A DNA stretch of 37,788 bases from IMG/VR virus record IMGVR_UViG_3300020215_000050, positions 85,495 to 123,282 of that record, one strand, 5' to 3'. The stretch is from a virus. Shown here one piece after another: positions 3,171 to 36,690 of this stretch; the first letter of the stretch is position 1; each line of letters opens with the position of its first letter. The translations under genes and the position numbers were made by a program. The notes below the pieces were generated by a model. That model worked only from the letters and a program-made list of their open reading frames with translations, was not told where the DNA came from and did no database searches.

Positions 3171-3194
3171 AGTCTCACTCCTGTTTCATTACGA

Positions 3195-4736
3195 TTAGGT
3201 GAAGGTGCCGCCGTCGATGTCGTCGAAGACGGGTACGCCGCTGGCGCCGGCCTGCAGGACCTTGCCCTGGGCGCCCGCCGCCGTGACGGCCAGGGCCGCC
3301 GCGTTCTGTCCGTAGATGACGCCGTTGTTGGCGAAGACCGAGACGCCCGTGCCGCCGTCGGGGACGGTCAGGTCCGAGGTCAGGCTGCCGGCGAGGATCG
3401 AGATCTTCGTCGAGTTGGCGAAGAGGGCGCCGCCCGAGTCGAGGACCGCGAGCAGGGTGCCGAGCCTGAAGGTGTTGTTCGCCGTATCGACGGTCGTCGT
3501 CGGCTCGACCTCGAGGTCCTTGAAGAGGGTGAAGATGCCCGAGTTGGAGGCGTCCCTGAACAGGCCGCCGAACTGGGTGACCGACGAGTTGCCCCACTGG
3601 CCGTACATGCCGATGTCGATCGTGTTCGCCGTGCCGTTGTTGATGGCGAGCTCGATCATCGAGTCTTCGACGGAGATGGTCGCGACGTTCAGAGTGACGA
3701 GCGAGCCGTTGACGAGCAGGTCGCCCGAGAACGTACCGTTGACGGCCGTGAAGCCCGCCGTGAAGTTCGCGTTGGCGGTGACGTTGAGGTCCGTGCCCCC
3801 GACGTTGACGTTGGCCGATGTCAGGTTAGTCAGCGCGCCCGACGCCGCCAGGTTGGCGGAGAAGGTCGCGTTCGAGGTCACCGACATGTTGGTGCCGCGG
3901 ATGAACGTGTTCGTCGAGTCGACGTTCATAACGTGGCCCTGGAAGGTCACGTGGGTCGTCGTCGAGTTGCCGAAGATGTTCGCGGCGAAGATCGTCGAGT
4001 TGGACTTGTAGAGCTGGGTGTTCGAGGTGACGGTGACCGTCGTGTCCGTGACGACCAGGTTCGAGGTGATCGTCGTCGTCGTGCCCGCCAGCGCGATGGT
4101 CGCGGACTGGACGTTGGCCACGGACGAGGTGACCTTGACCTCCGTTACCGTGGAGTTGCCCGTCGACAGGATGTTGTTGACGGTCGAGTTGCCGATGAGG
4201 GTCGTGTTGCCCTGGATCAGCGGCACGGTGAGGGTGTTCGCGATCGTGACGTTGTTCGTCGCTTCGTCGAACGTGAAGCCCGGCGAGCCGGAGAACGCGC
4301 CCGAGTCGTTGTACTGGACCTGGGTGTTGGCTCCGCCGGGGGTGCCCGACGTGACGACCTGGACCCACGAGCCGTTTGCGTTGAGGTAGTAGTTGCCGTC
4401 GGTGAACTGGGCGGAGGTCGGGATCGTCCACGTCGTGTTCGACGTGGAGTTCATGACCTTTATCGCCGTCGAGTTGACGGAGAGGTTGATCGTCGAGTTG
4501 CCGACCTTGAGGGCGTTGATGAAGCTGCCCGAGTCGACGACGATGGCCTGGTTGGCGGTGAGGGTGCCGGGGAACCGCCGGCCGGCGATGGCGACGGTGT
4601 TCGAGGTGGAGCCGTCTTCCTGGCCGATGAAGAGGACGCCGCCGTTGGAGGTCCAGACGAGCTCGCCGAAGTTGGTAGCGGGCGGCGTGCCCTGCTCCAT
4701 GGACCTCTTGATTTTAACGGTCGTCGGACCAGCCAT
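3195..4736 (-). CDS. Tail fibre protein (Mtd_N-like N-terminus, C-terminal DGGTF motif)
   Basis: 513 aa, N/T/S/G/V-rich. Contains VKIKRS...GEL, PGGANTQVQYNDSG, GDLLVNG...VEDSMIELA and a DIDGGTFT end. Confidence 0.85.
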   Translation of the reverse strand: MAGPTTVKIKRSMEQGTPPATNFGELVWTSNGGVLFIGQEDGSTSNTVAIAGRRFPGTLTANQAIVVDSGSFINALKVGNSTINLSVNSTAIKVMNSTSNTTWTIPTSAQFTDGNYYLNANGSWVQVVTSGTPGGANTQVQYNDSGAFSGSPGFTFDEATNNVTIANTLTVPLIQGNTTLIGNSTVNNILSTGNSTVTEVKVTSSVANVQSATIALAGTTTTITSNLVVTDTTVTVTSNTQLYKSNSTIFAANIFGNSTTTHVTFQGHVMNVDSTNTFIRGTNMSVTSNATFSANLAASGALTNLTSANVNVGGTDLNVTANANFTAGFTAVNGTFSGDLLVNGSLVTLNVATISVEDSMIELAINNGTANTIDIGMYGQWGNSSVTQFGGLFRDASNSGIFTLFKDLEVEPTTTVDTANNTFRLGTLLAVLDSGGALFANSTKISILAGSLTSDLTVPDGGTGVSVFANNGVIYGQNAAALAVTAAGAQGKVLQAGASGVPVFDDIDGGTFT

Positions 4737-4999
4737 TAGAACGTACCCCCGTCTACCTCGGCCAGCTGACCGACCACGTATTTATCGGTGTCGGCGTCGT
4801 ACTGGGGGATCGCGCCCTCGCTCGGGGATCCCTCGACGACGTCGAGGAGCTGGTCGAACCTGCCCGCGGTGCCGTCGACCCCGACGATCGCCGTGGTCTG
4901 GACCGTGGGCGTGCTCGTCTGCACGGGCCTGAGGATGCCGCCCTGGTTGGTCACGCGGACGGCGACGGACCTGCTCGCCCTCAGGGTCGCGGTAGGCAT
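4736..4999 (-). CDS. Small fibre-associated protein ending VDGGTF
   Basis: 87 aa with an LLDV...GAIPQYD motif; coupled to genes on both sides. Confidence 0.75.
   Translation of the reverse strand: MPTATLRASRSVAVRVTNQGGILRPVQTSTPTVQTTAIVGVDGTAGRFDQLLDVVEGSPSEGAIPQYDADTDKYVVGQLAEVDGGTF
4779..4786 (-). promoter_or_regulatory. Late promoter (GATAAATA) embedded in coding sequence
   Basis: Made of non-preferred codons GAT AAA; about 43 nt upstream of the 513-aa fibre start. Confidence 0.6.
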
Positions 5000-5322
5000 C
5001 AGCGGGTTACCTCCGGCGTTACGGACGCGATGCCCTCGATGAGTCGGGACACGACGCCGTTGGAGTCGACGAGCTCGACGTCATAGACGTACCTGCCCGC
5101 GACGACGTTGGCCGTCTGGTTCGCGGTCAGGCTCAACGTGACGGAGCCGTTGGCGACATTGACGGTGAAGGGGGTGTTCGCCGTGGAGGAATAGTGCTTG
5201 CGGAGCTGGGACCTGCCCGTGTAGCCGGTCAGGTTGAGGGCCGTGCCGGAGTCGTCCTCGACGTCGAAGGCGACGGAGAACGTGGTCCCCTGCTCGATCA
5301 CGATGTTGACCTTGCTGCTCAT
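4999..5322 (-). CDS. Conserved T4-like virion protein (BppU N-terminal-like fibre/baseplate adaptor)
   Basis: NIVIEQGTTF...LNLTGYTGRSQLRKHY...GRYVYDVEL...RLIEG...VTPEVTR pattern. Confidence 0.8.
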   Translation of the reverse strand: MSSKVNIVIEQGTTFSVAFDVEDDSGTALNLTGYTGRSQLRKHYSSTANTPFTVNVANGSVTLSLTANQTANVVAGRYVYDVELVDSNGVVSRLIEGIASVTPEVTR

Positions 5323-5328
5323 GGGACG

Positions 5329-5336
5329 TATTTATG
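5329..5336 (-). promoter_or_regulatory. Late promoter (CATAAATA), probably leaderless transcript
   Basis: Intergenic, 6 nt before the ATG, no SD. Confidence 0.75.
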
Positions 5337-5340
5337 GACC

Positions 5341-5709
5341 TCAGTAGAGGAAGACGTCGGGGCTGCCCGCCTCCGGGTCGACCACTGAGGGGAAGTGCAG
5401 GGCGTTGTCCGGATCCGCCGTGTCGTTCACGACGACGATGATCTTCTTGTTCTCGGCGAAGACCGTGCCCGGGGACGTGCTGATGAGGCCGCCTCCCCCG
5501 TGGGTGTTCTCGTCCTGCTCCACCGCTACGAGCAGGTTGTTGACGAAGACCGTCGACTGGTGGGTGACCACCGTGGTCGCCAGGCAGAAGCGGGCGTCCG
5601 TGTGCCTGTGGGCCTGGAACTGGCCGTCGCCGTCGGCCCCGTGCTCGGGCTGGGTCTGCTTGCCGCCGAGTGGCTGTCCGCCGAGAGGTGAGCTGCCGCC
5701 GATCGCCAT
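5341..5709 (-). CDS. PAAR-like spike tip protein (gp5.4-like) with N-terminal extension
   Basis: AHRHTD.RFC...QSTVFVNNLLVAV..D..THG...VFAENK...D...H......GSPDVF gives PAAR-type repeats with Cys/His ligands. Confidence 0.75.
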   Translation of the reverse strand: MAIGGSSPLGGQPLGGKQTQPEHGADGDGQFQAHRHTDARFCLATTVVTHQSTVFVNNLLVAVEQDENTHGGGGLISTSPGTVFAENKKIIVVVNDTADPDNALHFPSVVDPEAGSPDVFLY

Positions 5710-5710
5710 C

Positions 5711-6955
5711 TTACCAGCAGGTCACCCTGACCATGCCGGCGCCACCTGCGCCGGAATCGCCGATCTCGGCGCCGCCTCCCCCGCCTCCCGGCTGTGAGCC
5801 CGCCGTGGCGTTGTTCGAGTCGTGGGCGCCCGCCCCTCCGTCGCCTCCGAAGAGGCTGTTCCCGCCCGCCGAGCCGCCGGGGGTGCTGTCGACCGAGCCC
5901 CCTCCCCCGCCGGCTCCGCCGTGGACCGAGTTGCCGCCCGTGGCGGGATCCGTAGACGCGCCACCCAGACCTCCGCCTCCGCCTCCGCCGCCGCCGAAGG
6001 CCCCTCCGCCCTCGACTTGGTTGCCGCCGCCCTTTCCGCCCCAGTAGTCGGGCGGCTCCCTATTTCCAGTGGGTGACGTGCCCGAGGTGCCGCTCTGGCC
6101 CGCAGCGGTCGCCCCGGCCCCGGCCCCGCCGCCGCTGTTGGTGGTGACTCCGGCCCCGCCGCCCCCTCCGAATGCTTGGATGAGGGTCGCGCCCGAGCCA
6201 AAGGTGGTGGTGCCGCCCGTGCCGCCTCCTCCGGTCGCTGCCGTCTGGGACGACGCGCCTGCCCCGACGCTGACGCTCTCGGTCGCGCCGAGGTCGGCCA
6301 TCCTGAAGACCTTGCTTACCCAGGCCCCGCCGCCTCCTCCTCCTCCTCCCGGGTTGCCGCTGCCCGACACGCCGCCGGATCCTCCTCCGCCCCACGCCTC
6401 GACGAGGCACATGTTCTGTCCGCCCGAGGGCTTGGTCCAGGTGCCCGCCCCGGTCGCGGTGAACGTCTGGACGTCGACCGTGATCGCGTCCGACGGCGGC
6501 ACTATGTCGTCGATGAGGGCCCTCTTGAGGACCCCGCCCTCGAGCACGAAGCCGTAGACCGTGGCCGAGTCGATGGTGGTGTCGGTCGGCGTCGTCTCGG
6601 AGGGGGTGTCCTCCTTGGTGGCGACGATGAGGACGGTCGCGTTCCCCGAGAGGCTGATCGCCGCGTCGGCGTTGCTGCTCTCGAGGACGGTCCGGGTGAG
6701 GGTCGTGCCCGACGAGGTATAGACGCCCGTGCCCAGCTCCCAGTTGGCCCCGTCGACGATCCTGTAGCGGACCGTCTGGCCGTTGGTGATGCCGCAGTCG
6801 GCGAACGTCTGGGCGCCGAAGACGGCTGTGGTGAGGGTGATCGTGCCGGTGCCGGTCGTCGAGGTCTTCATCCAGCCGTTGTTGCAGAGCTGGACCGCCT
6901 CGGCCTGCACCGAGAGCAGGACGTACGCTACGAGGGCGAGGAGGAACTTCTTCAT
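5711..6955 (-). CDS. Glycine-rich fibre-type protein with signal-peptide-like N-terminus
   Basis: TSTTGTGTITL...WELGTG.Y...TLTR N-terminal domain; TWTKP...VEAWGGGGSGG Gly-rich domain ending GGAGMVRVTCW. Confidence 0.8.
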   Translation of the reverse strand: MKKFLLALVAYVLLSVQAEAVQLCNNGWMKTSTTGTGTITLTTAVFGAQTFADCGITNGQTVRYRIVDGANWELGTGVYTSSGTTLTRTVLESSNADAAISLSGNATVLIVATKEDTPSETTPTDTTIDSATVYGFVLEGGVLKRALIDDIVPPSDAITVDVQTFTATGAGTWTKPSGGQNMCLVEAWGGGGSGGVSGSGNPGGGGGGGGAWVSKVFRMADLGATESVSVGAGASSQTAATGGGGTGGTTTFGSGATLIQAFGGGGGAGVTTNSGGGAGAGATAAGQSGTSGTSPTGNREPPDYWGGKGGGNQVEGGGAFGGGGGGGGGLGGASTDPATGGNSVHGGAGGGGGSVDSTPGGSAGGNSLFGGDGGAGAHDSNNATAGSQPGGGGGGAEIGDSGAGGAGMVRVTCW

Positions 6956-6964
6956 GATGAAAAA
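6948..6964. promoter_or_regulatory. Dispersed pseudo-palindrome copy TTCTTCAT-G-ATGAAAAA
   Basis: 7/8 inverted repeat. The 15-mer CATGATGAAAAAACC (6953-6967) is identical to 32899-32913. Confidence 0.6.
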
Positions 6965-6967
6965 ACC

Positions 6968-8572: not shown

Positions 8573-11500
8573 CTACACCTGCAGGGCGATCGCGCGGACG
8601 TCGTTCAGCCTCGGGGCCAGCGCGGCGTCCTCGGCGAGCATGACGATCTTCAGGCAGAAGGTCTTGTAGGACCGGTAGACGGCCCCCGTCGCGGAGCTGT
8701 ACTCGGCGATGCCCGTCGAGGAGTTCGCGAAGACGGCCCGCGGGTTGGAGCCGTCGGACGGGACGGCGGTGGGCAGGGTATACTCGATCTCGACGAAGTC
8801 GCGGGTGTTCATCTGGTCCGAGTACATCTCGGCGCCCGTGCCCGCGGTCAGCTTGGTCCACTTCTTCGTGTCGAAGGCCTCGCCGTCCTCCTGGTTGAGG
8901 AACTTGACGTAGACCTGGACGTCCGTGCCCGACGGCCTCCAGGCCGTGACGTGGACGAGGATGTCCTCGGCCTCCTGACCGTCCTTGAGGACGACGTTCT
9001 TGGAGACGTACTTGGCCAGGGCCTCGCCGTAGTTGCTGTTGGCCTCGTTGGTGTCGGAGTTGTTGACGATGTTCTCGATCGCGAGGCCCGTCTTGCTCCT
9101 CAGGTCAATGACCGGCGAGACGAACTCGGACTCGGTGGAGAAGGTCGCCCTGAACCGGCAGCTCTTGTTGCCCGAGATGTCCGCGAGCTCGTTCGAGTAG
9201 CTCTTTACGATCCTCGTGAAGTCGAGGAACTCCGTCTCCGTGTTGTTGACGACGTCCTTGAAGCCGTCCTGGACGTCGCTGGAGTCGTAGCCCCTGTACG
9301 TGAAGACGAGGTTCGTCCTGTTCGGCTTCAGCGTGGCGTAGCGGGGGACGATGGCGTGGTAGTCCAGGTCGTCGACCGAGACGAGCTCGGCGTTGGCGAT
9401 CCTGGAGTTCGCCGTGATCAGGGAGACGTTGCCGACGGCCGTGGGCCTGTGGAACTGGATGTTGGCGCCGGCCGCCCAGCCGCCCGTCGAGGAGTCCAGG
9501 TAGACCGTCTCGTTGGGCTCGTCGATGAACTGGACGATGCCGAACGGCTGGGTCGTGTTGGCCCCCGTGAGGACGTGGGTGTCGTTGGCGGTGTAGACGA
9601 GGTCGCCGACCTGGACGAGGATGTCGGAGTTGGACCGGACCAGGCCGCTGTAGGTGATGAACTCGTCCGTCTCGTTGTCGAGCACGGCCACGGCGCTCGA
9701 GCCCGCGGTGAACTGGGCCCGGTAGAGGATGAACTTCATGTCCTCCTTCTGGTGGGAGGACCACGTGTTCATGTTCGAGGACGTGAACAGGACGCCGGCG
9801 TAGGGGTTCTGGTAGATCTGGACGCCCGTGTCGACGTCGAACTCGCCCGTCTCGCCGATCCAGATGCGGTACTCGGGGCTGTCGCCGTCGGGCTTGACCA
9901 TGAGGGCGTACTTCTCGCCGTTGGTCATGTAGACGGGGTGGTCGAAGGTGAAGGTCGTCGCCTCGGTGCCGTCGTCGGAGACGTTGACCTCGTCGGACGT
10001 CAGGTAGGCCCGGCCGATGATCCTCGTCGTGTCGGGGAAGCCGAACCTCATCTCCGTCACGAAGACGGTGATGCCCAGGCTCGGGTCCTTGGACTCAAAG
10101 AACAGGTCGAGCTTGGTCGCGAACGCGCCGGAGTCGCTCGTCGGTATGTTGGCGAAGATGCTCTGCGCGAGGGGGTCGAGGTAGCCGCGCCGCATGTTCG
10201 ACCAGTCTCGGCCGCCGCCGGTGTTGCGGGGGCGGGGCGGGTTCCTCGTCTGCGTGGTGGTCGTGACGATGACCTGGGTGTTGGTCGTCGTGACGACGCC
10301 GATCTCGGGCTCGATCGTGTTGAGGGTGACCCCCTGGGTCGTGACCGCGAGCTGGGCCGCGGTGAAGCGGGCGTCGGCCCTCGTCAGGATGGCGGTGTTG
10401 CCCGTGACCAGGTCGGAGACGTCGCAGAGCAGGAAGTTCCTGTCGCCCTGGCGGAACGTGCCCGCCGGGATGCTGAACAGGCCGAGCAGGTTGCCCGCGC
10501 TGTCGGACGTCAGGTTGGCGCCGAACGCGCCCGTCCTCGTCAGGATCTTGTCCTCGCGGCCCTCCTCGGGGTTCGTGACGTTCGAGTAGTCGGCCGGCGC
10601 GCAGTGGGCGTCGACGTTGACGTTGTCGAAGAAGGCGTGGATGCGGGTGTTGGGCTTCAGGTTGGTGGCGACGAAGGCGACCATCCTCGGCCGGATGTAG
10701 GGCTCGAGCGAGACGTCGCGGACGAACGGGCCGATCTGGTGCTGGTTCGTCATCGTCTCCATCTGCAGCTCCTCGACGATCCGGGTCCGCGTCTCCGTGG
10801 TCGTCGTCGTGGTCGTCCTGCCCGAGGTGACGGTGTTCGTCTGCCTCGTGTTGGAGGTCTGCACAGTCCTCCAGTCGCCGAACTGGCTGCCGAAGGAGCT
10901 GTCGAAGAAGTCCTCCCACGGCTGGCTCAGGTCCATCGTGATGTTCTGGTTGGGGACGCGGGTCTCGTCCCTCTTGTTGTCGAAGTTCGGGTAGAGCGTG
11001 CACTTGCCCGTCCACGCCCACTGGCTCTCGACGCAGTTCCTGATCTTGGAGGCGAAGTGCTGGTGGATCCAGGCGACGTGCGTGTAGGGGAGCGTGACGT
11101 AGTTGCCCGTCCTCTGGGTCGTCGAGTTCGAGCTGTTGTAGGTGAAGTCGACCGCGTGGGTCCTGAACGGCGGTCGGGCGACCCCGTAGTCCTGGTCGAT
11201 CGAGACCCGATACTCCTGGTCCGTGACCTTGCCCAGCGAGTGGCTGTTGAAGGGATCTGCGAAGATGCCGTTCTTGAACCTGTCCAGGCCGTCGACGTCG
11301 GGGACCGTGAAGTCCCTCGCCTTCTGCTCGAGGGCGTTGAGGACGGTGTAGTACTCGACCCTCTTGAGCCTCTGGTCTATGACGCCGACGTCCCGCATCG
11401 TGTAGCGGCGGTTCGTCTTGATGTCGTGGCGGACCTTGAGGTCGTGCCTGCCCAGCGACTCGGCCTCGCGCTGGCTCAGCGTCGGCCAGGCCGGGACGTA

Positions 11501-14381: not shown

Positions 14382-15887
14382 CTAGACCTTCAGGATGACG
14401 CGAACCGTCTCGTTCGTGACCGCGGTCCTCACGATGGGCTCGAAGTTCTGTACGCAGAGGACCTCGCCGCTGTTCTCCTCGACGTCCGGGGTATTTATTG
14501 CGCTTATCGTGGCCGCCACGGAAGAGTTCGCGCCGATGATCGTCTCCGCGTTGGCGAAGGTGCCGAGGACGGAGCTGAAGCGGAGGTAGGTCGTGTTCGA
14601 CCACAGGACCGTGCCCGTCGCCCCCGACGTCTGGCCCGTGATGACCTCGTCGTTGGAGAAGGGGCTGGTTATGCCCACGCCGAGGGCGATGTTCGCCCGG
14701 TAGTGCTGGACGATCTCGGCGTTGACGAAGGCGTTGGCGGAGTTCCTCGCCAGCGGGGCCTTGATGATGCCCGCCGTCCTGAAGTCCACGTTGGAGGGCA
14801 TGGCGTCCGAGCTCTCGATGTCGATCGAGATGGACAGGCGCTGGCTCATCAGCTCGTCGACCGGGTTGGACCCGTGCCCCCCGGGCGGGCCGATCACCGC
14901 CCTCAGGACGACCGACGTGTTGCCCACGCCCGCCGCCGCCACCGCGTTGACCGTGGCCCGGGAGTAGCCCGAGCCGACGTTGATGACGGAGACGTCCTGG
15001 ATCTTGAAGGTGTTCGCGTTGACCGTGCAGTAGGCCTTCGCCCCCGAGCCGTCGCCGGTGATGCGGATCTGGGGGGTGATGAGGTACTGGGAGCCGAGGG
15101 TGACGTTCGACATGGCTGTGGCCAGGGTGACGAAGTTGCCCGTCGAGTTGGACACGTAGTCTGTGATCACGCTCAGGAGGCCGGCCCCGTTCCCCGCCTG
15201 GATGTACATGGCGGAGTCGACGTAGATGTCGTTCGAGGTCGACGCCGCGTTGGCGATCTGGAACAGGGTGTTGGACACCTTCGAGACGATCGTCCCGTTC
15301 GTGGTGGCGACCCAGTTGTTGCCGTTGGTCTCGACGAGGATGACGTCGAGAGCCCCGTCGATGGCCGCCTCCTCGATGGTGGCGTTGGCCTCGATCGGGA
15401 AAAGGGTGCTCGTCTCGTGGGCGTCGAGCTTGGCCTGGGTGACCGTGAACATGTACTTCCAGATGTAGCCGTCGCCGGTCTGGAAGGGGGTGTTCGCCGT
15501 GGTCGTCGGCTTGGAGGTGGAGCGGGTGTTGGCGTTGTTGAACAGGCACTTGTAGACCTTCCGCTCGTCCGTGATGACGAAGAAGGTCTTGTCCCTGAGC
15601 TCCTCGTCCCGGTCGTCGTAGGCCGAGTAGAGGGTGTTCGTCGTCCAGACGTTCCTGGTGACCAGGTAGGCGCAGTCCGTGTCGTCGAACTTCTTGGCGT
15701 AGATCATCTCCCTGTGGGGCAGGTAGTGGCTGACGTAGAGGGACTCGTCCGCCTCGTCGGGGTCGTCGTCGTCCGTCCACGGCGTGTACCGGCTGACGAA
15801 CACGTAGTGGTTCGTGTTCGCGAGGGACTCGAGGAAGTGCTGGAGGAGGCAGCTCCTCCAGTAGTTGGTTAGAACCATGTGGGTCAT
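14382..15887 (-). CDS. gp8: Baseplate wedge subunit gp8
   Basis: VYKCLFNN...S..KP, GDGYIWKYMF, PPGGHGSNPVDEL, terminal PIVR....ETVRVILKV; follows gp7. Confidence 0.88.
   Translation of the reverse strand: MTHMVLTNYWRSCLLQHFLESLANTNHYVFVSRYTPWTDDDDPDEADESLYVSHYLPHREMIYAKKFDDTDCAYLVTRNVWTTNTLYSAYDDRDEELRDKTFFVITDERKVYKCLFNNANTRSTSKPTTTANTPFQTGDGYIWKYMFTVTQAKLDAHETSTLFPIEANATIEEAAIDGALDVILVETNGNNWVATTNGTIVSKVSNTLFQIANAASTSNDIYVDSAMYIQAGNGAGLLSVITDYVSNSTGNFVTLATAMSNVTLGSQYLITPQIRITGDGSGAKAYCTVNANTFKIQDVSVINVGSGYSRATVNAVAAAGVGNTSVVLRAVIGPPGGHGSNPVDELMSQRLSISIDIESSDAMPSNVDFRTAGIIKAPLARNSANAFVNAEIVQHYRANIALGVGITSPFSNDEVITGQTSGATGTVLWSNTTYLRFSSVLGTFANAETIIGANSSVAATISAINTPDVEENSGEVLCVQNFEPIVRTAVTNETVRVILKV
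14492..14499 (-). promoter_or_regulatory. Late promoter (AATAAATA) embedded in gp8
   Basis: Codons GCA ATA AAT in an otherwise G/C-ending gene; about 118 nt upstream of the 1933-aa gene. Confidence 0.6.
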
Positions 15888-15890: not shown

Positions 15891-18800
15891 TCAGCTCGTA
15901 AAGGTCTGCAGCTCGGTATTGGTGGCCCTGCGTGGCAGGTATTTAAGCTTTCTTATCCAGCCGTTGCCCACGTTGCTGCCGTTCTGGTGGCCGATGTTCA
16001 GCACGGTCGCGGCATCGGGCAGGCTGACGGAGGTGTCTGTAGACGGCGATCCGCCGTTGCAAACGGCCGCCGCGTCGTTGAGGGCCCAGGCGAAGGCCAC
16101 CTTGCTCGTCGTGCCGAGGGCGTTGATGCCCTTGGTGAAGCTGACGACCGACGAGTTGTTGTCGTCGACGATGAGACGGGCCTCCGGGGTATCGTTCCAG
16201 AACAGGCCTATCCGCTCGGGTTCGCTGAAGTAGAGGTCCCAGACGTAGTCGACCGGGTTGCCCGAGCGCAGGTGGGGCGTGAACTCGGCCGAGATCGTAC
16301 CCGCCGTGGCGCTGTATGGGAATAGGGTCGTCAGGATGGCGGTCTGGTCTTGCTGGCGTGTGACGCTAGCCGTGGTCGTCGGGATGTAGCTAGTGGCCCA
16401 CGAGACGTCTTCCTCGAACTGCATGCCGAACACGTCCACGTACGCGGCGGCGTCGCCCGCGTAGCTGAGTATCGCGTCCTCCGTGCCGAAGGCGCCGCCC
16501 CAGGCATTCGCGGAGGCGAACCTCACGTGGGGGACCGCCGTCGTTGCTGCCCCCGTGTCGGCGGCGAGCACGACCCTGTACCACCCGTCCGGGCAGGCCT
16601 CGATCGAGGAGGCGAGGTAGGTCCACGACGCGGCGTTGTCGTCTGTTATCGTGCCGCTCTGCAGGTCGACGATGATGCCCGCGCCCGTGCCCGAGCCGTC
16701 GGCGAGCATCACGGAGACGTACCGGCGGGTCCCGTACTTGAGGTACACGGACAGGACCTGGGTGTCGGAGGTGCCCACGGCAGGCCGGTTCGCCGTGTTG
16801 CCGATGAAACCGTGCGTACCCGTGGTGGCGGTCTCCGTGACCCGGCACGCGCTGTTCGCCACCCCGTCCGGCCCCGTGACGGACTTGCTAACCGTGGCCC
16901 GCTCGACCGTCCATGCCGACTGCGTGTAGTCCGAGGAATGGAGCATCTGGTTGGTGCGCTGGGGCTCGATGAGGAGGCCCCTCGGCGTCAGGTTGGTAGG
17001 ATTGTAGTCGTAGCGGGGCTCGTCGACCGCCGCGGTGGTCAGGATGCCGTTCGCGTTGTAGTACGTACCCGTGGACGCCCGGGTGTGCGTCAGCTTGTCG
17101 AACGGGTCGCCGGCGAAGGACAGCGCGCCGTTAGAGCCGTGCCAGATGGTGATGTTGGGTTCGGTGTTGGAGAAGTCGATCGCCATGCCCGTCTCGCTGC
17201 CGAGCAGAGTCAGGGAGCTCGTGCCCGCGCCCACGTTGGCGCTGCTCGTGTTCGGGGTGACCGTCGACTCGAGGTCGACCTCGTCCCGGACCACGGCGGT
17301 GCCGAACAGCTCCACGCCGGCCGGGTGATAGACCTTCCGCAGGGTCTCCTCGTACCGGTCCAAGGACCTGCTCGACTGGACGTCGTAGCTGTACTCCTGG
17401 TAGTAGAACGAGTCCTGGATGTACTTGTCTGCGTTGAGGAAGCCCTTGGTCGACGTCCACTCGCCCCTGCCGAAGCCCACTGCGCCGATGACCGCCTCGG
17501 CCTCGAGCTCCGTCTCCTGGGCGACGTCGCCCCACACGAGGGCCTCGCCGTCCTCGGTCGTCAGCGTCTCGTCGACGTTCTCCCTCCTCAGGAAGTCGTT
17601 CCCCGAGTAGTTGAGGGTCAGCGCCTGGCCGTTGGCGTAGCCGAAGCCCGAGTCGACGACGCGCATAGCCGTCGCGACGTTGGAGCCCGCCACGGCCTCC
17701 CCCTCGATGACCGCGTTGTTGCCCATGTAGCCGTTGTTGGCGGCCAGCTCGAAGGAGAGGATGGAAGGTTCGACGACCCAGACGGTGACGTCCTCGGTAT
17801 ACTCCGAGCCGGGGTTGATGTTGACGAGGCTGCCGATCGTGCCGACCGTCGTGTTGCTCGCCTCCTCCCAGTCGGAGACGAGGGCGTTGTCGTTCATCGT
17901 CGTATTGGAGGCGAGAGTCTCGGTGACGAAGACCTGCGTCCCGTCCTCGGTGTAGATCGCGCCCGTGTCCTCCTGGAGGACCATCGGGTTGTACAGGAAC
18001 GTGAAGTCCTCGAGGGTGTCGTTCTCGTAGGGGAGCACGATCGTGTCGGAGAAGCTCAGGATCTCGGTGTTGACGATCGAGCCTACCTCGAAGGTCGCGC
18101 CCGAGCCGACGAAGGCCGCGTCGAGGGGGACTCCGTCCTCGCAGAAGATGTAGTCCGCCCCGTCCTCGGTCAGGATGGCCTTGTTGATGATGTACACGAG
18201 GGAGTCCATCGTGTAGCCGGTGCCGCCCCACTGGATGCTGAACTCGATGAGGCCCGTGCCGCGGGCGCGGAGCTCGCTGACCCTGACCTCGAGCCCGATG
18301 CCCGTGCCCTGGTCGTCGCCCGCCCTGTAGGCGTCGCCGATGCGGTTGTCGAGGCCCCCGCCCGTGACGACCATCTCGGTCACGCTGCCCAGGATCCTCG
18401 GGATCTTGGTGGGGTCCTCAAAGCCCTCGTAGGAGATGGGCTCGCCGACCTCGAATTCGCCGACGATGTTGGACAGGTAGAACAGGTAGACGGGCCGGCC
18501 GCGGACGTTCCGGATGACGTAGTCCTCGACGATGGCCGTGGCCTCGGAGTTCACGCCCGTGATCTGCTTGAGCAGGTAGTCCTGGTTGAAGCGGGTGTAG
18601 TTGATCTCCAGGTACTTGGGCTGGTGCCAGGTGCCGTCCGACGGGGCGAGCATGTCCCGGGACGGGATGTAGATGTCGATGTCCTCCCGGTAGATGAGCT
18701 GGAACAGGAGCTTCAGGCCGGCGTTCGAGCCCTTGGACCGGTACAGGTCGAGGATGTGCTTCTGGAGGAATCTTCTATCACCAAGAATTTCCACGGGGAG

Positions 18801-19025
18801 CCCGTGCATGTACTCGATGACGAAGTTGTCGAGGAGGGCCTCGCGGGTGTCGTCGATGTCTCGGTTCCGCTGGAGGTTCCTGGCCTCGGACAGGACGTTG
18901 TTGGACTCTCCCAGCCACTCGTAGTAGCTCTTGACGAACTCGACGAGCTGCGGGCCCTCGGTGCGGTAGACCTCGGGGAACTGCCTCTCGATGAAGTGGG
19001 CGATGCGGGGGTCCGCGGCCTTCAC
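15891..19025 (-). CDS. gp7: Baseplate wedge initiator gp7-like protein fused to a C-terminal ConA/LamG-like domain
   Basis: QFPEVY...FVKSYYEWL, DLYRSKGS..GLKLLF, IQDSFYYQEYSY...HPAGVELFG; then a TRASTGTY...GLLIEPQRTN domain. Confidence 0.82.
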   Translation of the reverse strand: MKAADPRIAHFIERQFPEVYRTEGPQLVEFVKSYYEWLGESNNVLSEARNLQRNRDIDDTREALLDNFVIEYMHGLPVEILGDRRFLQKHILDLYRSKGSNAGLKLLFQLIYREDIDIYIPSRDMLAPSDGTWHQPKYLEINYTRFNQDYLLKQITGVNSEATAIVEDYVIRNVRGRPVYLFYLSNIVGEFEVGEPISYEGFEDPTKIPRILGSVTEMVVTGGGLDNRIGDAYRAGDDQGTGIGLEVRVSELRARGTGLIEFSIQWGGTGYTMDSLVYIINKAILTEDGADYIFCEDGVPLDAAFVGSGATFEVGSIVNTEILSFSDTIVLPYENDTLEDFTFLYNPMVLQEDTGAIYTEDGTQVFVTETLASNTTMNDNALVSDWEEASNTTVGTIGSLVNINPGSEYTEDVTVWVVEPSILSFELAANNGYMGNNAVIEGEAVAGSNVATAMRVVDSGFGYANGQALTLNYSGNDFLRRENVDETLTTEDGEALVWGDVAQETELEAEAVIGAVGFGRGEWTSTKGFLNADKYIQDSFYYQEYSYDVQSSRSLDRYEETLRKVYHPAGVELFGTAVVRDEVDLESTVTPNTSSANVGAGTSSLTLLGSETGMAIDFSNTEPNITIWHGSNGALSFAGDPFDKLTHTRASTGTYYNANGILTTAAVDEPRYDYNPTNLTPRGLLIEPQRTNQMLHSSDYTQSAWTVERATVSKSVTGPDGVANSACRVTETATTGTHGFIGNTANRPAVGTSDTQVLSVYLKYGTRRYVSVMLADGSGTGAGIIVDLQSGTITDDNAASWTYLASSIEACPDGWYRVVLAADTGAATTAVPHVRFASANAWGGAFGTEDAILSYAGDAAAYVDVFGMQFEEDVSWATSYIPTTTASVTRQQDQTAILTTLFPYSATAGTISAEFTPHLRSGNPVDYVWDLYFSEPERIGLFWNDTPEARLIVDDNNSSVVSFTKGINALGTTSKVAFAWALNDAAAVCNGGSPSTDTSVSLPDAATVLNIGHQNGSNVGNGWIRKLKYLPRRATNTELQTFTS
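18771..18787. promoter_or_regulatory. Dispersed pseudo-palindrome copy TCTTCTAT-C-ACCAAGAA
   Basis: AT island in gp7 built from GAA ATT CTT GGT GAT AGA AGA. Confidence 0.45.
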
Positions 19026-27660: not shown

Positions 27661-27848
27661 TCTTTGTTTTCCATGTCGTCGATCATCAGGTCGACCATCG
27701 TCTCATACGGGTTCGGGCCGTCGAAGCCGTGGTAGGCCATCGCCTTGATGTCGCCGACCAGCTCTACGGTCTTCCACCCCCGGTGCTCGGAGTAGGCGCG
27801 GAAGGCCTTCTCGATCAGCATCGCGTACTTCGACTCCCAGCAGCTCAC
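27657..27848 (-). CDS. Small hypothetical protein, 63 aa (MSCWESKYAMLIEKAF...MENKE)
   Basis: GTGA overlaps on both sides and a GGAGG SD. It is the real tail of ORF 27657..28244. Confidence 0.7.
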   Translation of the reverse strand: MSCWESKYAMLIEKAFRAYSEHRGWKTVELVGDIKAMAYHGFDGPNPYETMVDLMIDDMENKE

Positions 27849-29278
27849 TGGCCGGTCCCTCCCTCGTCGTCGAGCGAGGACCTGCCGATGTCCTTCCAGT
27901 AGGCGTCCCGATACAGGTCGAGGACCATCACGTGCTTGTCGGGGGCGAGGATGCTCTCGGAGACGCTGCCGACGATCCACTTGCCGGACAGCATCGGGTC
28001 GGGCTCCCCCTTGTTCTCGACGCTCTCGAAGATCGGGATGACGACCCTCACGAGGTCGCCCGCGTCGACCATCGTGTCGCCGGGGACGGTGATCGTGAGG
28101 CCCATCTGGCTCAAGGCGACGCGGACGGACTGGAACATGCCGCCTCCCTTCTTCACCACGTTGGGCTTCTCCTCGGGGTCCTTCTGCCTGAGGATCGTCT
28201 TGGAGGCCTGCTCGTAGGCGTACCCCGTCTCCTGGGACGCCCACTCGCCGATGAACTGCTGGGTGTTCAGCTTGGCGTCCTCGCCGTTGCCGAACCCGCC
28301 CAGGACGAGGAACCCGTCCCTCTCGTGCTTGAACACGCTCTCGGTGATGGATTTTTCCATGATGGAATAAAGGACGGTCTCGTTCTCGTAGAGGCCCTCG
28401 CGGATCTTCTGGAGGGTGTCGAACCTGCTGTGGACCTGGTAGTTGATGATGCGGCGGATGTCCCTGGCCTGGACCGAGTCCTCGTCGCCCACTTTGTTGA
28501 CGTACTTATCTGAGGCGTAGGCGTACCAAGTCTCCTGGTTGTTGGGGTTCTGGCCCGGGGTCGTGCCGGGCTCGCCGGGGGTCCCGGGCGCCCCCTGCTC
28601 CCGCTTGTTCACGGGCTGGGAGACGAGGTCCTCGAACATCCTCAGGTAGTAGCCGTCGTGCCTCTCCCAGAACAGGAAGTAGTCCGACTTCCCCCTCACG
28701 CCCTTGTAGCCCCTCCTGAGGAGCATGTCGATCGCCTCGAAGGGGGAGTAGTTGGGGATCACGAGCTTCTTGGCGGGGTCCTTCATCTCGGTCGGCTGGT
28801 ACAGCTTCCCCGACTGGAGGTCCCTGGTGAGGATGTCCTTGATGATCGAGCCCGCGTCGTCCGTCGTCGTGTAGCTCCGCATGATCTGGCTGAAGGCGTT
28901 GCGGAACACCTCGGGCGAGCAGAAGTGGAGGGTGTAGACCATCGACTGGCCGGCCCGGTCGGGCTGCTCGTCCGTCACCTTCCACACCCGGAAGGTGCCC
29001 GTCTTGGCGCCGTTGTCGGGGGTCTCGAAGCTGACGTCGAGGTGCTCCTCGCCGACGATGGGGAACTTCGCGAGCATGCCGATCGCGTCGTAGACCGTCA
29101 GCGTGCCCGAGATGAAGTACTCGAAGATGCTCGTCTTGAAGGTCAGCTCGGTGAACACGTACTTGAGGTCCAGCGTCTCGCCCGCCCAGTTCCTGAGCTC
29201 GAGCTTGGTGACGTCGACGTTGTGGGCTATGCCCCTCTCGTCCGAGGAGGTGCCGTCGGGACTAGATTCGATCGCCAC
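27845..29278 (-). CDS. Baseplate hub protein (gp27-like)
   Basis: SIFEYFISGTL.VYDA...FPIVGEE, IPNYSPFEAI, YFLFWE..DGY, TVPGD...AGD, SGKWIV; lies between gp53 and gp5. Confidence 0.8.
   Translation of the reverse strand: MAIESSPDGTSSDERGIAHNVDVTKLELRNWAGETLDLKYVFTELTFKTSIFEYFISGTLTVYDAIGMLAKFPIVGEEHLDVSFETPDNGAKTGTFRVWKVTDEQPDRAGQSMVYTLHFCSPEVFRNAFSQIMRSYTTTDDAGSIIKDILTRDLQSGKLYQPTEMKDPAKKLVIPNYSPFEAIDMLLRRGYKGVRGKSDYFLFWERHDGYYLRMFEDLVSQPVNKREQGAPGTPGEPGTTPGQNPNNQETWYAYASDKYVNKVGDEDSVQARDIRRIINYQVHSRFDTLQKIREGLYENETVLYSIMEKSITESVFKHERDGFLVLGGFGNGEDAKLNTQQFIGEWASQETGYAYEQASKTILRQKDPEEKPNVVKKGGGMFQSVRVALSQMGLTITVPGDTMVDAGDLVRVVIPIFESVENKGEPDPMLSGKWIVGSVSESILAPDKHVMVLDLYRDAYWKDIGRSSLDDEGGTGQ
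28353..28369. promoter_or_regulatory. Dispersed pseudo-palindrome copy TTTTCCAT-G-ATGGAATA
   Basis: 7/8 inverted repeat using non-preferred codons CTT TAT...GAA AAA. Confidence 0.6.
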
Positions 29279-29798: not shown

Positions 29799-30685
29799 CA
29801 GGCAGTCCCCGTGTTGTCGGTGCCGGCGCCGCCCGTGCCCGGGGTGGTGGTGCCCGTGCCGCCCGGCGCGGTGTTGCCGTCGTAGGTCTCGCGGGTGGCC
29901 GCCTCGACCTCCTTCAGCGTGATGCCGAACTCGATCACGCAGGGCTCGTCGGAGCCGGCGAAGAAGGCCTTGACCCCGTCCGCCGAGTTGTCGACGTGCA
30001 GCTCGGTCACCACGCTCTTGAAGATGGGATAAAGAATTTCTTTGTCGCCGGCGAGGAACTTGACGTAGACCTCGTTGGGGAAGTTGAGCAGGAACTCGTT
30101 CTTCTTCGTCGGGTGCATCCTCGAGCGGATGTACTTGAGGATGTCCCTCAGCGCCTGGCTGTCCTCCTTGGTCTCCGGCGCGACCCTCCAGTGGAGCTGG
30201 TGGGTGCGGAGGTGGACGCCCTCGAAGACCGCCGTGATGTGCGGGTTGATCGCCGTGCCCGTGAACCGGTCGAAGATGCCGCCCGGGATCAGCGCGGACA
30301 TCGTCCTTCTCGCCAGGCTCTTGGCGAAGTCGGGGAGCACCTGACCGCCCTCCTGGAGGAGGTCCTCGAGCGTGCCCCCCTCGATGTACTTGTTCACCAT
30401 CGGCTCGGTGACGTTGGCGAGTCCCCCCACGAGGCCGAACTCCTCCTCGGCGTACTGGATGCCGTAGCTCTCGTGCAGGTTGAGCGGGAGGGGGAGGACG
30501 ATGGAGGCCTGGTCGACCCGTATCGCCTTCTGCTTGGGGTTCGACCGCTTGAACTCGACGAACTGGAGGATCGTGAAGTAGTGGGCGTGGTCGTGCGGGA
30601 ACCGGAGCGAGGAGGTGCCGCCGGTGACGGACTCCATGCCTGCCGGGATCGCCTCTTCTGGTAGTGGACTGGAGCGGTTGGCCAT
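29798..30685 (-). CDS. gp48: Baseplate tail-tube cap gp48
   Basis: IVLPLP......Y...Y, AINPH....FEG..LRTH...W..AP....DS, P.......TLKEVE. Confidence 0.85.
   Translation of the reverse strand: MANRSSPLPEEAIPAGMESVTGGTSSLRFPHDHAHYFTILQFVEFKRSNPKQKAIRVDQASIVLPLPLNLHESYGIQYAEEEFGLVGGLANVTEPMVNKYIEGGTLEDLLQEGGQVLPDFAKSLARRTMSALIPGGIFDRFTGTAINPHITAVFEGVHLRTHQLHWRVAPETKEDSQALRDILKYIRSRMHPTKKNEFLLNFPNEVYVKFLAGDKEILYPIFKSVVTELHVDNSADGVKAFFAGSDEPCVIEFGITLKEVEAATRETYDGNTAPGGTGTTTPGTGGAGTDNTGTA
30015..30031. promoter_or_regulatory. Dispersed pseudo-palindrome copy CTCTTGAA-G-ATGGGATA with adjacent palindrome at 30028-30046
   Basis: AT island in gp48 (AAA GAA ATT CTT TAT). Confidence 0.4.
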
Positions 30686-30709
30686 CTGCCTACATAGTGG
30701 GGTTCGCGG

Positions 30710-30717
30710 TATTTATT
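30710..30717 (-). promoter_or_regulatory. Late promoter (AATAAATA) heading the baseplate unit
   Basis: In the divergent gp48/gp4 intergenic region. Confidence 0.75.
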
Positions 30718-30730
30718 GTGGATTCTAGCG

Positions 30731-31174
30731 ATGGCTTGGAAGGGGAAGTTCAGACCCCTCAACCCCGGAAAGTACAGGGGCAAGGACCTCAACAACATCA
30801 TCTATCGCTCGAGCCTGGAGCTCCGGTTCATGCGCTACTGCGACACCTCGAGCAGGGTGGTCTGGTGGTCGTCGGAGGAGGTGGTCGTCCCCTACTACGA
30901 CCCCGTCAAGAAGAAGCAGAGGCGCTACTTCCCCGACTTCGTGCTGTGCCGGCTCACCCCCGAGGGCGAGGAGGAGAAGATCATGGTCGAGATCAAGATG
31001 GCGAGGGAGAGCCTGCCGCCCACCCACTACAAGGGGAAGAGGAAGGCCCGCGTCATCTCCGAGGAGCTGACGTGGCGGACCAACCAGGCCAAGTGGGCCG
31101 CGGCGCGGCTCTTCTGCAATAAATACAACCTTAGATTTGAGCTCGTAGACGAGAAGGTGGTCGCAAGACTCTAA
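30731..31174 (+). CDS. gp4: Head completion nuclease gp4 (TnsA-like)
   Basis: MAWKGKFRPLNPGKYRG...IIYRSSLE..FM.YCD...W.SEE..VPY...RYFPDF...VEIK...NQAKW.AA. Start moved to ATG 30731. Confidence 0.95.
   Translation: MAWKGKFRPLNPGKYRGKDLNNIIYRSSLELRFMRYCDTSSRVVWWSSEEVVVPYYDPVKKKQRRYFPDFVLCRLTPEGEEEKIMVEIKMARESLPPTHYKGKRKARVISEELTWRTNQAKWAAARLFCNKYNLRFELVDEKVVARL
31118..31125 (+). promoter_or_regulatory. Late promoter (AATAAATA) embedded in gp4
   Basis: Codons AAT AAA; about 49 nt upstream of gp2. Confidence 0.6.
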
Positions 31175-31752
31175 TGGCAGGCGGTCCGTTCACGGAGATC
31201 CTTCGCAGAGCGTATCAGACCGGCCGCACCCCCGACCGGGTGGACAGCCGCGAGTGGTTCAGGGCCCAGGCCCAGAAGGTCCGCTCCGTCAACGTCCAGC
31301 GCCTCGTCCTCGACCCGCGAGCTACGCAGACCCTCGTGCCGGGGAAGATGTACCACTACTTCTACGACCCCAAGCACAAGGACACGCTCCCCTACTACGA
31401 CAGGTTCCCGCTGATATTTCCGTTCCGCCTGCTCGAGGGCGGCTTCATGGGCATCAACCTCCACTACCTGCCCTACCCGGCGAGGGCCCGGCTCATGGAC
31501 GCGCTCTACTCCCTCGAAGACCGCCGGTACAAGGAGGACAAGCGCCTCCGCCTCAGCTACGAGATCCTCAACTCCGCCGCGAGGTTCTCGTACTTCAAGC
31601 CCTGCGTCAAGCGGTACCTCAACGGCCACGTCCGGTCCCAGTTCCTCCCCATCCCGTCGGAGCAGTGGGAGATAGCCCTCTTCCTGCCCACCGAGCGGTT
31701 CATGAAGGAGAGCAAGCAGGACGTCTGGAAAGATTCGATGGACAAGCTCTAA
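31174..31752 (+). CDS. gp2: DNA end protector gp2
   Basis: PGKMY.YFYDPKHKDTLPYYDRFPLI...GF.GINLHYLP...KPCVKRYL..HV.S...W..ALFLP.E.F. Confidence 0.96.
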   Translation: MAGGPFTEILRRAYQTGRTPDRVDSREWFRAQAQKVRSVNVQRLVLDPRATQTLVPGKMYHYFYDPKHKDTLPYYDRFPLIFPFRLLEGGFMGINLHYLPYPARARLMDALYSLEDRRYKEDKRLRLSYEILNSAARFSYFKPCVKRYLNGHVRSQFLPIPSEQWEIALFLPTERFMKESKQDVWKDSMDKL

Positions 31753-32429: not shown

Positions 32430-32633
32430 ATGTGGTTGAAGCTTACCAAGGCAAACGAAACCGTTCCAGACGTTTGGATCAACATGAGCCTCGTTGTCCG
32501 CATATACGCGAACGAGACCAACAGTTACACCACGATCGACTTCCAGGATGCAGATCACATCCAGGACAACATCGTGGAGACGCCGGAGCAGATTTTTAAT
32601 ATGATGGAGAAAAAAAAGAATGCCGCTTCCTAA
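32430..32633 (+). CDS. Small hypothetical protein, FlbD-like pattern, low GC
   Basis: AAGGAG SD 8 nt before ATG 32430; WLKLT...VWIN...V.RI...T.I.F......VETPEQI. Confidence 0.6.
   Translation: MWLKLTKANETVPDVWINMSLVVRIYANETNSYTTIDFQDADHIQDNIVETPEQIFNMMEKKKNAAS
32595..32611. promoter_or_regulatory. Dispersed pseudo-palindrome copy TTTAATAT-G-ATGGAGAA
   Basis: Good right half-site, overlapping the gp26 RBS; lies in an AT-rich gene, so less diagnostic. Confidence 0.35.
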
Positions 32634-33309
32634 GATAGACCACCCCCTGTTCGACGCCACCCTGCCATCGGGGAAGAAGGTGAAGTACAGGCCGTTCACC
32701 GTCAAGGAGGAGAAGGTGCTCCTCCTCGCCAAGGAGGGGAACGACGCCAAGTCGGCGTTCGGCGCCACCCAGCAGATCGTCAACAACTGCGTCGTCGGCG
32801 ACGTCCAGGCGGACAGGCTGCCCCTGTTCGACATCGAGTACCTGTTCCTCCTCATCAGGGCCAAGTCCGTCGGCTCGAAGGTGAAGCTCAGGATTCGCCA
32901 TGATGAAAAAACCACCGTCGACACGGAGGTGGACCTGAACCAGATCAACGTGCGCCAGCCGGCCAAACCCCACAAGGGCGTCGTCCAGCTCAACAAGAGC
33001 GTGGGCATCAAGCTCCGGCACCCGACGATCACCACGCTGATGGAGCGGGACCTAAAGGACATCTACGACGTCCTCGCCGACTGCATCGACAAGGTCTTCG
33101 AGGGCGACGAGGTCTACGACCTCAAGGACTTCAAGAAGGAGGAGGTGGACGAGTTCATCTCCGGCTTCACGACCGAGCACATGGAGCAGATCAAGCAGTT
33201 CTTCGACAGCGCGCCGACGATCGAGATCACCGCGAAGTACAGGACGAAGGACGGCGGCGAGCACACCAAGACCATCTCGGGGCTCGGGGATTTTTTAGGG
33301 TCTGCCTGA
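32620..33309 (+). CDS. gp26: Baseplate hub assembly protein gp26-like
   Basis: MPLPKI..P.F...LPSGKKVKYRPFTVKEEKVLLLA...FDIEYLFL.IRAKSVG...I..FF...P...GL.DF. Confidence 0.92.
   Translation: MPLPKIDHPLFDATLPSGKKVKYRPFTVKEEKVLLLAKEGNDAKSAFGATQQIVNNCVVGDVQADRLPLFDIEYLFLLIRAKSVGSKVKLRIRHDEKTTVDTEVDLNQINVRQPAKPHKGVVQLNKSVGIKLRHPTITTLMERDLKDIYDVLADCIDKVFEGDEVYDLKDFKKEEVDEFISGFTTEHMEQIKQFFDSAPTIEITAKYRTKDGGEHTKTISGLGDFLGSA
32894..32910. promoter_or_regulatory. Dispersed pseudo-palindrome copy TTCGCCAT-G-ATGAAAAA
   Basis: Codons ATT CGC CAT GAT GAA AAA; shares an exact 15-mer with 6953-6967. Confidence 0.6.
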
Positions 33310-33343: not shown

Positions 33344-33485
33344 GTTCGAGATGAGACAGAGCTTCGGCTGGCCGATCGAGGAGCAGGAGGCCATGTACCC
33401 GTTCGAGAGGGACGCGTACCTGATGCTCCTAGAGGAGTGGGCCGAGAAGAAGGCGGAGAGGGCCGAGAAGGCTAAGAATGCTTAA
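33291..33485 (+). CDS. gp51: gp51-like baseplate hub assembly domain in the -1 frame of gp26
   Basis: LSHSSLVAHYRLTFEMRQSFGWPIEEQEAMYPFERDAYLMLLEEW matches the short gp51-like family pattern; no SD-supported start before the conserved part. Confidence 0.8.
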   Translation, partial: FFRVCLSHSSLVAHYRLTFEMRQSFGWPIEEQEAMYPFERDAYLMLLEEWAEKKAERAEKAKNA

Positions 33486-36363: not shown

Positions 36364-36389
36364 CCGCCCAACATATCACAGCCCCGTAG

Positions 36390-36422
36390 AAAAATGAAGG
36401 CGGACGTCTCCGCCCGCCCTCA
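36390..36422 (-). terminator. Intrinsic terminator
   Basis: TGAGGGCGGGCG-GAGA-CGTCCGCCTTCA-TTTTT. Confidence 0.85.
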
Positions 36423-36557
36423 CCCTGCCCGTGATCGGACATGTCGCCACCGCCGGTTTTACCCCATGTGCGGAGTGCGCCGGCCTAGGCCGGCCCCTCC
36501 CGCGGGGTCCCACGAGCCGTCGACTGGGAGGTGGGCGTCTGCACGGTGTAGCGAGTC
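36390..36557 (-). ncRNA. Putative structured small RNA B (about 167 nt)
   Basis: Bounded by a sigma70-like promoter and a terminator; multiple helices; no credible ORF inside. Confidence 0.6.
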
Positions 36558-36562
36558 GCGAT

Positions 36563-36591
36563 AGGATAACCCGGACGGGCCCGGATGTAAA
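36563..36591 (-). promoter_or_regulatory. Sigma70-type promoter TTTACA-N17-TATCCT with AT-rich UP element
   Basis: -35 at 36586-36591, -10 at 36563-36568. Confidence 0.75.
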
Positions 36592-36613
36592 CCGAAAAGT
36601 TGGAATTTTGTGT

Positions 36614-36650
36614 AAAAAAAAGGGGCCCGACGCCCAATCGCCGAACCCCT
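36614..36650 (-). terminator. Intrinsic terminator
   Basis: AGGGGTTCGGCG-ATTGGG-CGTCGGGCCCCT followed by a T run. Confidence 0.88.
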
Positions 36651-36673
36651 CTTCCAAGAGCGTACACTACGTC

Positions 36674-36690
36674 ATAGTCAAGATGGAGAA
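36674..36690. promoter_or_regulatory. Dispersed pseudo-palindrome copy ATAGTCAA-G-ATGGAGAA
   Basis: Good half-site, intergenic, between the two putative RNAs. Confidence 0.35.

Follow-up and report, generated by a model that had tools for sequence, protein, structure and literature searches.

Dispersed signals known in T4-like phages are promoters, MotA boxes, promoter(early) stem-loop elements (PeSLs), and RegA or RegB sites. A T4-type late promoter carries a TATAAATA-like box ~10 nt upstream of the late transcript start. The stoperators of cluster A mycobacteriophages, which are temperate and have an immunity repressor, are short asymmetric sites, tens per genome in addition to the true operator, that lie in one orientation and mostly in short intergenic gaps. 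T4 RegA targets are A+U-rich and unstructured and usually include an AUG, with a SELEX consensus of aaAAUUGUUAUGUAA (PMC3014915). Here, we analyze a short AT-rich word that recurs in a 37,788-nt stretch of viral DNA (hereafter the window; positions 85,495 to 123,282 of IMG/VR record IMGVR_UViG_3300020215_000050) and elsewhere in the same contig. The word reads T(4-5)-N2-3-(G/A)TGAT-(G/A)GAAAA, spans ~17–19 bp, and is present in ~15 copies in 123 kb. It is a genuine, non-random motif that relatives lack, and it is independent of orientation and unstructured. As we discuss below, we tentatively favor its being a double-stranded DNA site for a candidate protein. The window makes up the final 37.8 kb of the 123,282-bp contig; positions marked "genome" refer to the whole contig and all others to the window.

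The word recurs in DNA that played no part in its definition

A first-pass annotation of the window had listed nine 17-mers as copies of one dispersed pseudo-palindrome, and all nine are present. A weight matrix built from these nine sites only was scanned on the 85.5 kb outside the window, which provides a clean test because this DNA was never seen in the first-pass annotation. We found 11 matches of at least 16 bits, compared with 0.6–0.8 (maximum 3 in 60) in shuffles that preserved dinucleotides within 24- or 40-nt blocks and retained local AT-rich islands. Eleven out-of-sample matches, where shuffling gives ~0.7, therefore establish that the motif is real. At a threshold of at least 14 bits, there were 20 matches compared with 1.4 for column-permuted matrices. 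By region, the strongest signal came from unseen intergenic DNA (7 matches, 0.21 expected). The comparison with a codon-shuffled null, on which the annotation had staked its proposal beforehand, also placed the motif count above expectation.

The word itself is specific. First, a search with the consensus TTTTNNNTGATGGAAAA, allowing up to three mismatches, found 6 places in the window with 9 matches in all, compared with 0.25 expected. Second, the pattern TTT-N0-4-GTGAT-N0-4-AAA occurred 6 times, compared with 0.5 for permuted cores, 0.13 in block shuffles, and 0 for swapped flanks; with the T/A flanks fixed, the GTGAT core was 12-fold above any permutation of the same letters. Third, the unseen matches converge on one word, found as TTTTTGGTGATGGAAAA at genome 40051, TTTGATGTGATGGAAAA at genome 2788, and GTTTTGATGATAGAAAA at genome 23679. 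Finally, the flanked GTGAT core had zero occurrences in the relatives G001 (136 kb) and G002 (176 kb), both of which are GC-rich. Random recoding of 8-codon stretches with A/T-ending codons reached 16 bits in 0.66% of trials, and ordinary annotated gene starts did not score with the motif matrix.

Other comparisons carry less weight. Single-linkage clustering of AT-rich 12-mers was of no use, as all words merged in one giant cluster, and two islands that agree at 15/16 positions do not by themselves reach significance, with ~2 such pairs expected by our estimate among AT-rich words. An exact 15-mer that the annotation had found shared between two distant sites, CATGATGAAAAAACC, is real (6953–6967 and 32899), but its weight is small, as 76 repeated 15-mers exist in the window compared with ~8 under a first-order Markov model. 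Half-sites noted at 24053 and 27667 are present but do not stand out.

Copies in the window

A second matrix, made from the nine non-window copies, was used only to sort members from non-members and is partly circular rather than independent, because its nine copies were picked with the first matrix. Its top ranks in the window were 28353, 32595, 18771, 20113, 6948, and 32894, and these six of the nine listed sites hold together as one motif; the other three score below 12 bits. The members are as follows.

6948–6964, strand unassigned: motif copy of the CATGATG subtype, readable on both strands, 19.4 bits, repeat family D16
18771–18787, minus strand: motif copy in the gp7-like baseplate wedge gene 15891–19025(−), codons ~79–85, 20.0 bits
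20113–20129, minus strand: motif copy in the gp6-like baseplate wedge gene 19027–20832(−), 20.0 bits
28353–28369, plus strand: motif copy of the CATGATG subtype, antisense in tail gene 27845–29278(−) (PHROG 350), 22.6 bits, best in the window
32595–32611, plus strand: motif copy in the leader and ribosome site of the gp26-like hub gene 32620–33309(+), 20.1 bits
32894–32910, plus strand: motif copy, sense, in the gp26-like hub gene 32620–33309(+), codons 91–96, 18.6 bits

The listed sites that fall outside the motif are these.

3182–3198, minus strand: below 12 bits; TAA stop of gene 3195–4736(−) and AT-rich ribosome site of gene 2679–3170(−)
30015–30031, minus strand: below 12 bits; mid-gene in a gp48-like gene
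36674–36690, minus strand: below 12 bits; intergenic, its reverse strand reading TTGACT, an early-promoter −35 hexamer

The window contains genes for gp8, gp7, gp6, gp25, gp5, gp53, gp48, gp4, and gp2, together with a tail-tube-like gene, the gp26-like hub, a tape-measure-like gene, and gp32. Five of the listed sites had been placed inside structural genes; 18771, 20113, 28353, 30015, and 32894 are indeed mid-gene, but 30015 lies outside the motif. The copy at 6948 overlaps the start codon and ribosome site of gene 5711–6955(−), which has a tail-fibre-assembly-like PHROG hit. No TAnnnT box lies 16–18 nt after the TTGACT at 36674.

In the hub gene, an in-frame ATT at codon 91 (32893–32895) stands where the motif copy starts, and GGTGA lies 8 nt upstream; an internal AUU start is reported for T4 gene 26, and a possible internal start at codon 91 is worth a look. 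The site at 30015 abuts a separate island of low G+C content at third codon positions (GC3), 30024–30046 (AAA GAA ATT CTT TAT), that contains AAAGAAATTCTTT, a perfect palindrome of 13 nt; in related strains from two other soil samples, at thin cover, none of the changes listed falls inside 30015–30046. The sequence GAAATT(C/G)TT has three occurrences in the genome, each of them in a baseplate gene (gp6, gp7, and gp48-like) and on its sense strand. An exact 20-nt direct repeat, GAGGAACTTGACGTAGACCT, lies at 8897–8916 in a 1933-residue virion gene and at 30053–30072 in the gp48-like gene, the second copy 7 nt from the 30024–30046 island.

Mid-gene copies override the codon bias of this phage

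The contig comes from a soil metagenome, is 74% complete, and represents a T4-like myovirus with 64% G+C, with 150 of 164 called genes on the minus strand, GC3 of 0.93–0.99 in large genes, and roughly 10% non-coding DNA. Its sequence was recovered again in Logan contigs from the two probable source runs among four soil runs compared, and a megablast search with 6.5 kb found no match among deposited phages. The DNA relatives compared with this phage (G000) were L082/L083 (G003/G002) and L002 (G001); the GC-rich relatives used for codon comparison have 38–66% amino-acid identity, and the nearest gp6 relatives, at 58–60% identity, lie outside this set.

The local collapse of GC3 that had been claimed for the mid-gene sites was borne out. 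Genome-wide, 20 islands have at least 5/6 A/T-ending codons, compared with 1.4 ± 1.2 in synonymous shuffles. The gp7 copy, whose sense strand reads TTCTTGGTGATAGAAGA, comprises seven consecutive A/T-ending codons. The gp6 copy sits inside 11 consecutive A/T-ending codons (20104–20136) over a conserved YEIVFGNG block, in a gene that has ~31 A/T-ending codons in 601. In the GC-rich relatives, the homologous codons of gp6, gp7, the gp48-like gene, the PHROG-350 gene, and the gp26-like hub are G/C-ending: the gp6 island is missing, and in L082, L083, and L002 the gp7 positions are G/C-ending. Therefore, the recoding is specific to this phage lineage. Only about one-quarter of the low-GC3 islands bear the motif; of the others, some are embedded late promoters, some are early promoters, and some, such as 30024–30046, lack an explanation. 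One in-gene island at genome 30522–30549(−), AAT CTT CAG AAA AAA CTT CGA AGA ATC, stands beside an internal TTGACA (30497–30512) and could represent an embedded promoter preceded by its upstream element. In G001, in-gene low-GC3 islands (3448, 8763, 17495, 60176, and others) are mostly embedded early promoters, TTGACA-N17-TATAnT after (A)TGAAGAAA, and the mid-gene islands of this phage are unlike them.

Recombination could have left such traces: the in-gene islands would be short patches acquired from low-GC relatives, or the word would be the stem-loop of PeSL-like promoter-terminator cassettes, which promote shuffling. Indeed, the islands in gp6 and gp7 cover blocks conserved among T4-like phages, where low-GC relatives use similar A/T-ending codons, and the promoter-linked copies resemble a weak T5-loop-A5 stem ahead of a sigma-70-type promoter, as in the PeSL arrangement (PMC4122927). 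Separate gene patches, however, would not share one word across reading frames and non-coding DNA. In addition, the stems are unstable, the mid-gene copies lack promoters, and the island edges are abrupt without flanking homology. The single exact-match search for a low-GC donor, made with the 33-nt gp6 patch in IMG/VR, found none, which is weak evidence against the donor patches that the annotation had allowed for. We regard a recombinational origin as most improbable.

The word lies in both orientations and at a fixed position upstream of three early promoters

Nine of the ~15 copies are in non-coding DNA. Relative to local transcription, nine are sense and six antisense, and the best copy (genome 40051, 24.9 bits) sits in the gap separating divergent promoters, outside both of the predicted transcripts. 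Copies in leaders or start regions are at genome 857, genome 31260, 6948, and 32595, and copies at genome 2788 and genome 67904 follow stop codons. At three early promoters, whose −35 boxes are found at genome 40045, 39148, and 36397, the core is centered at approximately −48 to −50 and the A-run (AAAAAAG-like) abuts the −35 box, 4–5 nt upstream of TTGAC(T/A). The mid-gene copies (gp6, gp7, the PHROG-350 gene, the hub gene, genome 567, and genome 23679) have no −35/−10 boxes and no start-codon context. The word is read in two frames, as TTT GGT GAT AGA AAA at genome 567 and TTG ATG ATA GAA AAA at genome 23679; the small genes at these two positions have no similarity, and paralogy was rejected. 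Around the genome 31260 copy, at genome 31240–31270(−), a GTG within the motif opens an 8-codon mini-frame whose TGA overlaps the ATG of gene 30993–31247 (ATGA), a possible coupled leader mini open reading frame.

The early promoters of this phage have the form TTGAC(T/A)-N17-TA(G)nnT, occur at 12 intergenic places (genome 3637–122318, including window 36824(−)), and often lie immediately downstream of an A-tract; their TAGnnT is an uncommon variant of the −10 box. The late-promoter box is (C)AATAAATA(C/A), often within the 3′ end of the preceding gene, and was the sole AT-rich word to top a blind k-mer test against synonymous shuffles. It was found at the following places.

14492–14507, minus strand: late box
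15939–15957, minus strand: late box
30709–30727, minus strand: late box
31110–31138, plus strand: late box
Genome 1602, 25786, 56788, 57590, 62480, 64854, 67747, and 74349: late boxes

The late box is in no motif copy, and a T4-type late promoter was rejected as the identity of the word. MotA-box middle promoters were rejected by eye and with no MotA domain, and RegB sites were rejected with no RegB gene; neither RegB nor MotA was detected in the contig. Boxes for IHF, Fis, CRP, Fur, Zur, DnaA, and CodY and the lambda operator half-site GGTGATA, compared by eye only, did not fit.

The main rival to the reading that we favor is that the copies form no single system but resemble one another as a composite of AU-rich translation starts, A-tract upstream elements, and a few unrelated low-GC3 islands. 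The matrix would then pick up ordinary AT-rich signals whose common features are a T-run, a (G/A)TG resembling a start, and an A-run. Of the four most AT-rich translation start regions in the genome, three hold listed sites (32595, 6948, and 3182), with 32595 the most AT-rich of all and 6948 the second. In the promoter-linked copies, moreover, the A-run falls exactly at the position of the proximal subsite of an upstream promoter (UP) element. In G001, the TTGACA boxes are immediately preceded by an A-rich block that is unlike the word of this phage, namely (A)TGAAGAAA or AAAGAATGG, and the low-GC3 islands are promoters embedded near gene ends. The one-quarter share of islands that match the motif and the modest in-gene enrichment in unseen DNA fit this rival as well. 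Against it stand the 12-fold excess of the GTGAT core with its flanks fixed, the failure of ordinary annotated starts to score, and the mid-gene copies without promoter boxes or start context. A composite origin is possible but rather doubtful in our judgment; were mere resemblance of start regions and promoter A-tracts the explanation, the finding would be an ordinary one.

The copies are unstructured, and a role in RNA is unlikely

Hairpin or RNA structure was rejected as the basis of the motif, as 14 of 15 copies fold no better than shuffles, and no Rfam family matched. The exception is the gp6 copy, which includes a 7-bp inverted repeat, AATTGTT / AACAATT. At 20108–20132(−), this region could form a 9-bp A-U-rich hairpin with 7 Watson-Crick pairs (AAUUGUU/AACAAUU) and two more (fold z −3.5).

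The unstructured AU-rich, start-like segment (U-run, GUG/AUG, and A-rich codons) could be bound as RNA by RegA, S1, or ribosomes and serve as an operator, decoy, or pause site. The phage encodes a homologue of the RegA translational repressor at genome 17965–18330(−) (L081; Pfam PF01818, E = 4e-40), and the sense strands GAAAUUGUU (gp6) and AAUUGUGAUAGAA (the genome 31260 leader) resemble the RegA SELEX consensus. Four or five of the unstructured copies are in real leaders or start regions, and GAUAGAA matches the RAYARAA tail of strong RegB/S1 sites. This reading has difficulty, however, with the six of 15 copies that are antisense, the six that are mid-gene, and the best copy, which is probably untranscribed. 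RegA sites also have poly(A) 5′ of the AUG, whereas the A-run is 3′ here, and known RegA targets are early and middle genes rather than baseplate genes. For RegB, there is neither a gene in the contig nor a GGAG beside GAUAGAA. Taken together, these contacts with RNA appear unlikely.

A candidate recognition site on double-stranded DNA

We tentatively favor the reading that the word is a double-stranded DNA recognition site of a candidate protein, either phage-encoded or from the host, because the copies are orientation-independent, the best copy is probably untranscribed, the position at three promoters is fixed, and there is no structure. The protein would recognize the word on DNA, with a home context in regulatory DNA, upstream of the −35 box at some early promoters and in gene leaders. 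A few more copies would have been written into late baseplate genes through codon changes that are synonymous or, in a few cases, conservative. Binding might modulate early promoters, shut them off, or mark the genome as a whole.

Several results weigh against this DNA-level reading. The in-gene signal in unseen DNA is modest (3 matches at 16 bits, compared with 0.42 in synonymous shuffles), and at 14 bits the in-gene count is 7 compared with 4.0. Only 3 of the 12 predicted early promoters carry the motif, and several copies lie in start regions, which are AT-rich by expectation anyway. The circularity of the second matrix, noted above, counts on the same side. No candidate binder was found: the contig, at 74% completeness, has no ParB_N, HTH_3, HU/IHF, or MotA domain, and ten genes beside copies gave no informative Pfam or PHROG hit.

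The annotation had proposed selected sites for a dimeric protein. Selection is supported by the out-of-sample enrichment, by occurrence in several frames and in non-coding DNA, and by rare codons unlike those of relatives, but the dimeric, palindromic part of the proposal is not. Palindromic operators of a dimeric DNA-binding protein, serving as stoperators, parS/Noc sites, or packaging or replication signals, would account for copies that are dispersed and orientation-independent and for T-run and A-run flanks that mirror one another, and three copies (6948, 28353, and 32894) read TTC..CAT-G-ATG..GAA on both strands. These are only 3 of 15 copies, however, and the core (G/A)TGAT(G/A)G is asymmetric, with GGTGATGG not self-complementary and only the flanks mirrored. 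Inverted repeats of the in-gene islands are at chance level (p = 0.07 against shuffles), and the contig has no ParB_N or HTH_3 gene. The specific roles fare no better. A parS/Noc-like organization is at odds with the lack of a CAC|GTG dyad in any copy and of ParB_N (PF02195) in the contig. Stoperator-like silencing would call for an orientation rule that the 9 sense and 6 antisense copies do not follow and for a repressor, none of which was found, and ~15 scattered copies are ill-suited to a pac or ori function. A palindromic operator is very unlikely on these grounds.

A broader form of the DNA-level reading would make the word the operator of a genome-wide DNA-binding system undescribed for T4-like phages, with ~15 AT-rich landing pads. 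Its protein would shut off early transcription or organize the genome from pads at early promoters, in leaders, and in late baseplate genes, and the pads might be the only patches readable where cytosines are probably sugar-modified hydroxymethylcytosine. We consider this form distinctly improbable, less so than a palindromic operator.

Short, dispersed motifs that override a 95% G/C third-position bias in essential virion genes are direct evidence of selection at the nucleic-acid level. Another lineage-specific word would indicate a regulator or host factor in an uncultured group of soil phages, and GC-rich phages are convenient for finding such signals because selected AT-rich words stand out in them.

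Comparison with known systems

T4 RegA operators (PMC3014915) share with the word an A+U-rich, unstructured character, a frequent AUG, and a location in several start regions, and a RegA gene is present here. They are RNA sites in one orientation at early and middle starts, whereas the copies described here lie in both orientations, include late mid-gene copies, and have the A-run on the 3′ side. PeSLs (PMC2839356, PMC4122927) likewise pair a short repeated composite motif with early promoters, as T5-loop-A5 followed by a sigma-70-type promoter. They differ in having terminator-like hairpins and in being intergenic in hyperplastic regions, whereas the folds here are at shuffle level and copies occur in core baseplate genes; a promoter follows only three copies, and the gp6 copy, the only one to fold better than shuffles, has none.

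The sites of parS/Noc systems resemble the word in being dispersed, 16–17 bp long, T-rich on the left and A-rich on the right, with a GTGA-containing center. The likeness ends at the perfect dyad (TGTTTCAC|GTGAAACA; 16-bp TGTTNCACGTGAAACA-like), which the word lacks, and at the ParB_N domain, which the contig lacks. Stoperators are also short, asymmetric, and repeated; here, by contrast, copies point both ways in a phage of a lytic T4-like type, for which a repressor was not found. UP elements, A/T-tract blocks at −38 to −59 of a promoter, lack the specific TGAT core, and ~12 copies of the word have no promoter, with 3 of 12 early promoters carrying it. The UP consensus spaces the T-run and the A-run by 3 nt, compared with 7–8 nt here. 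What the word does share with UP elements is an A-run at the position of the proximal subsite at three promoters, the same place that the A-rich block of G001 occupies.

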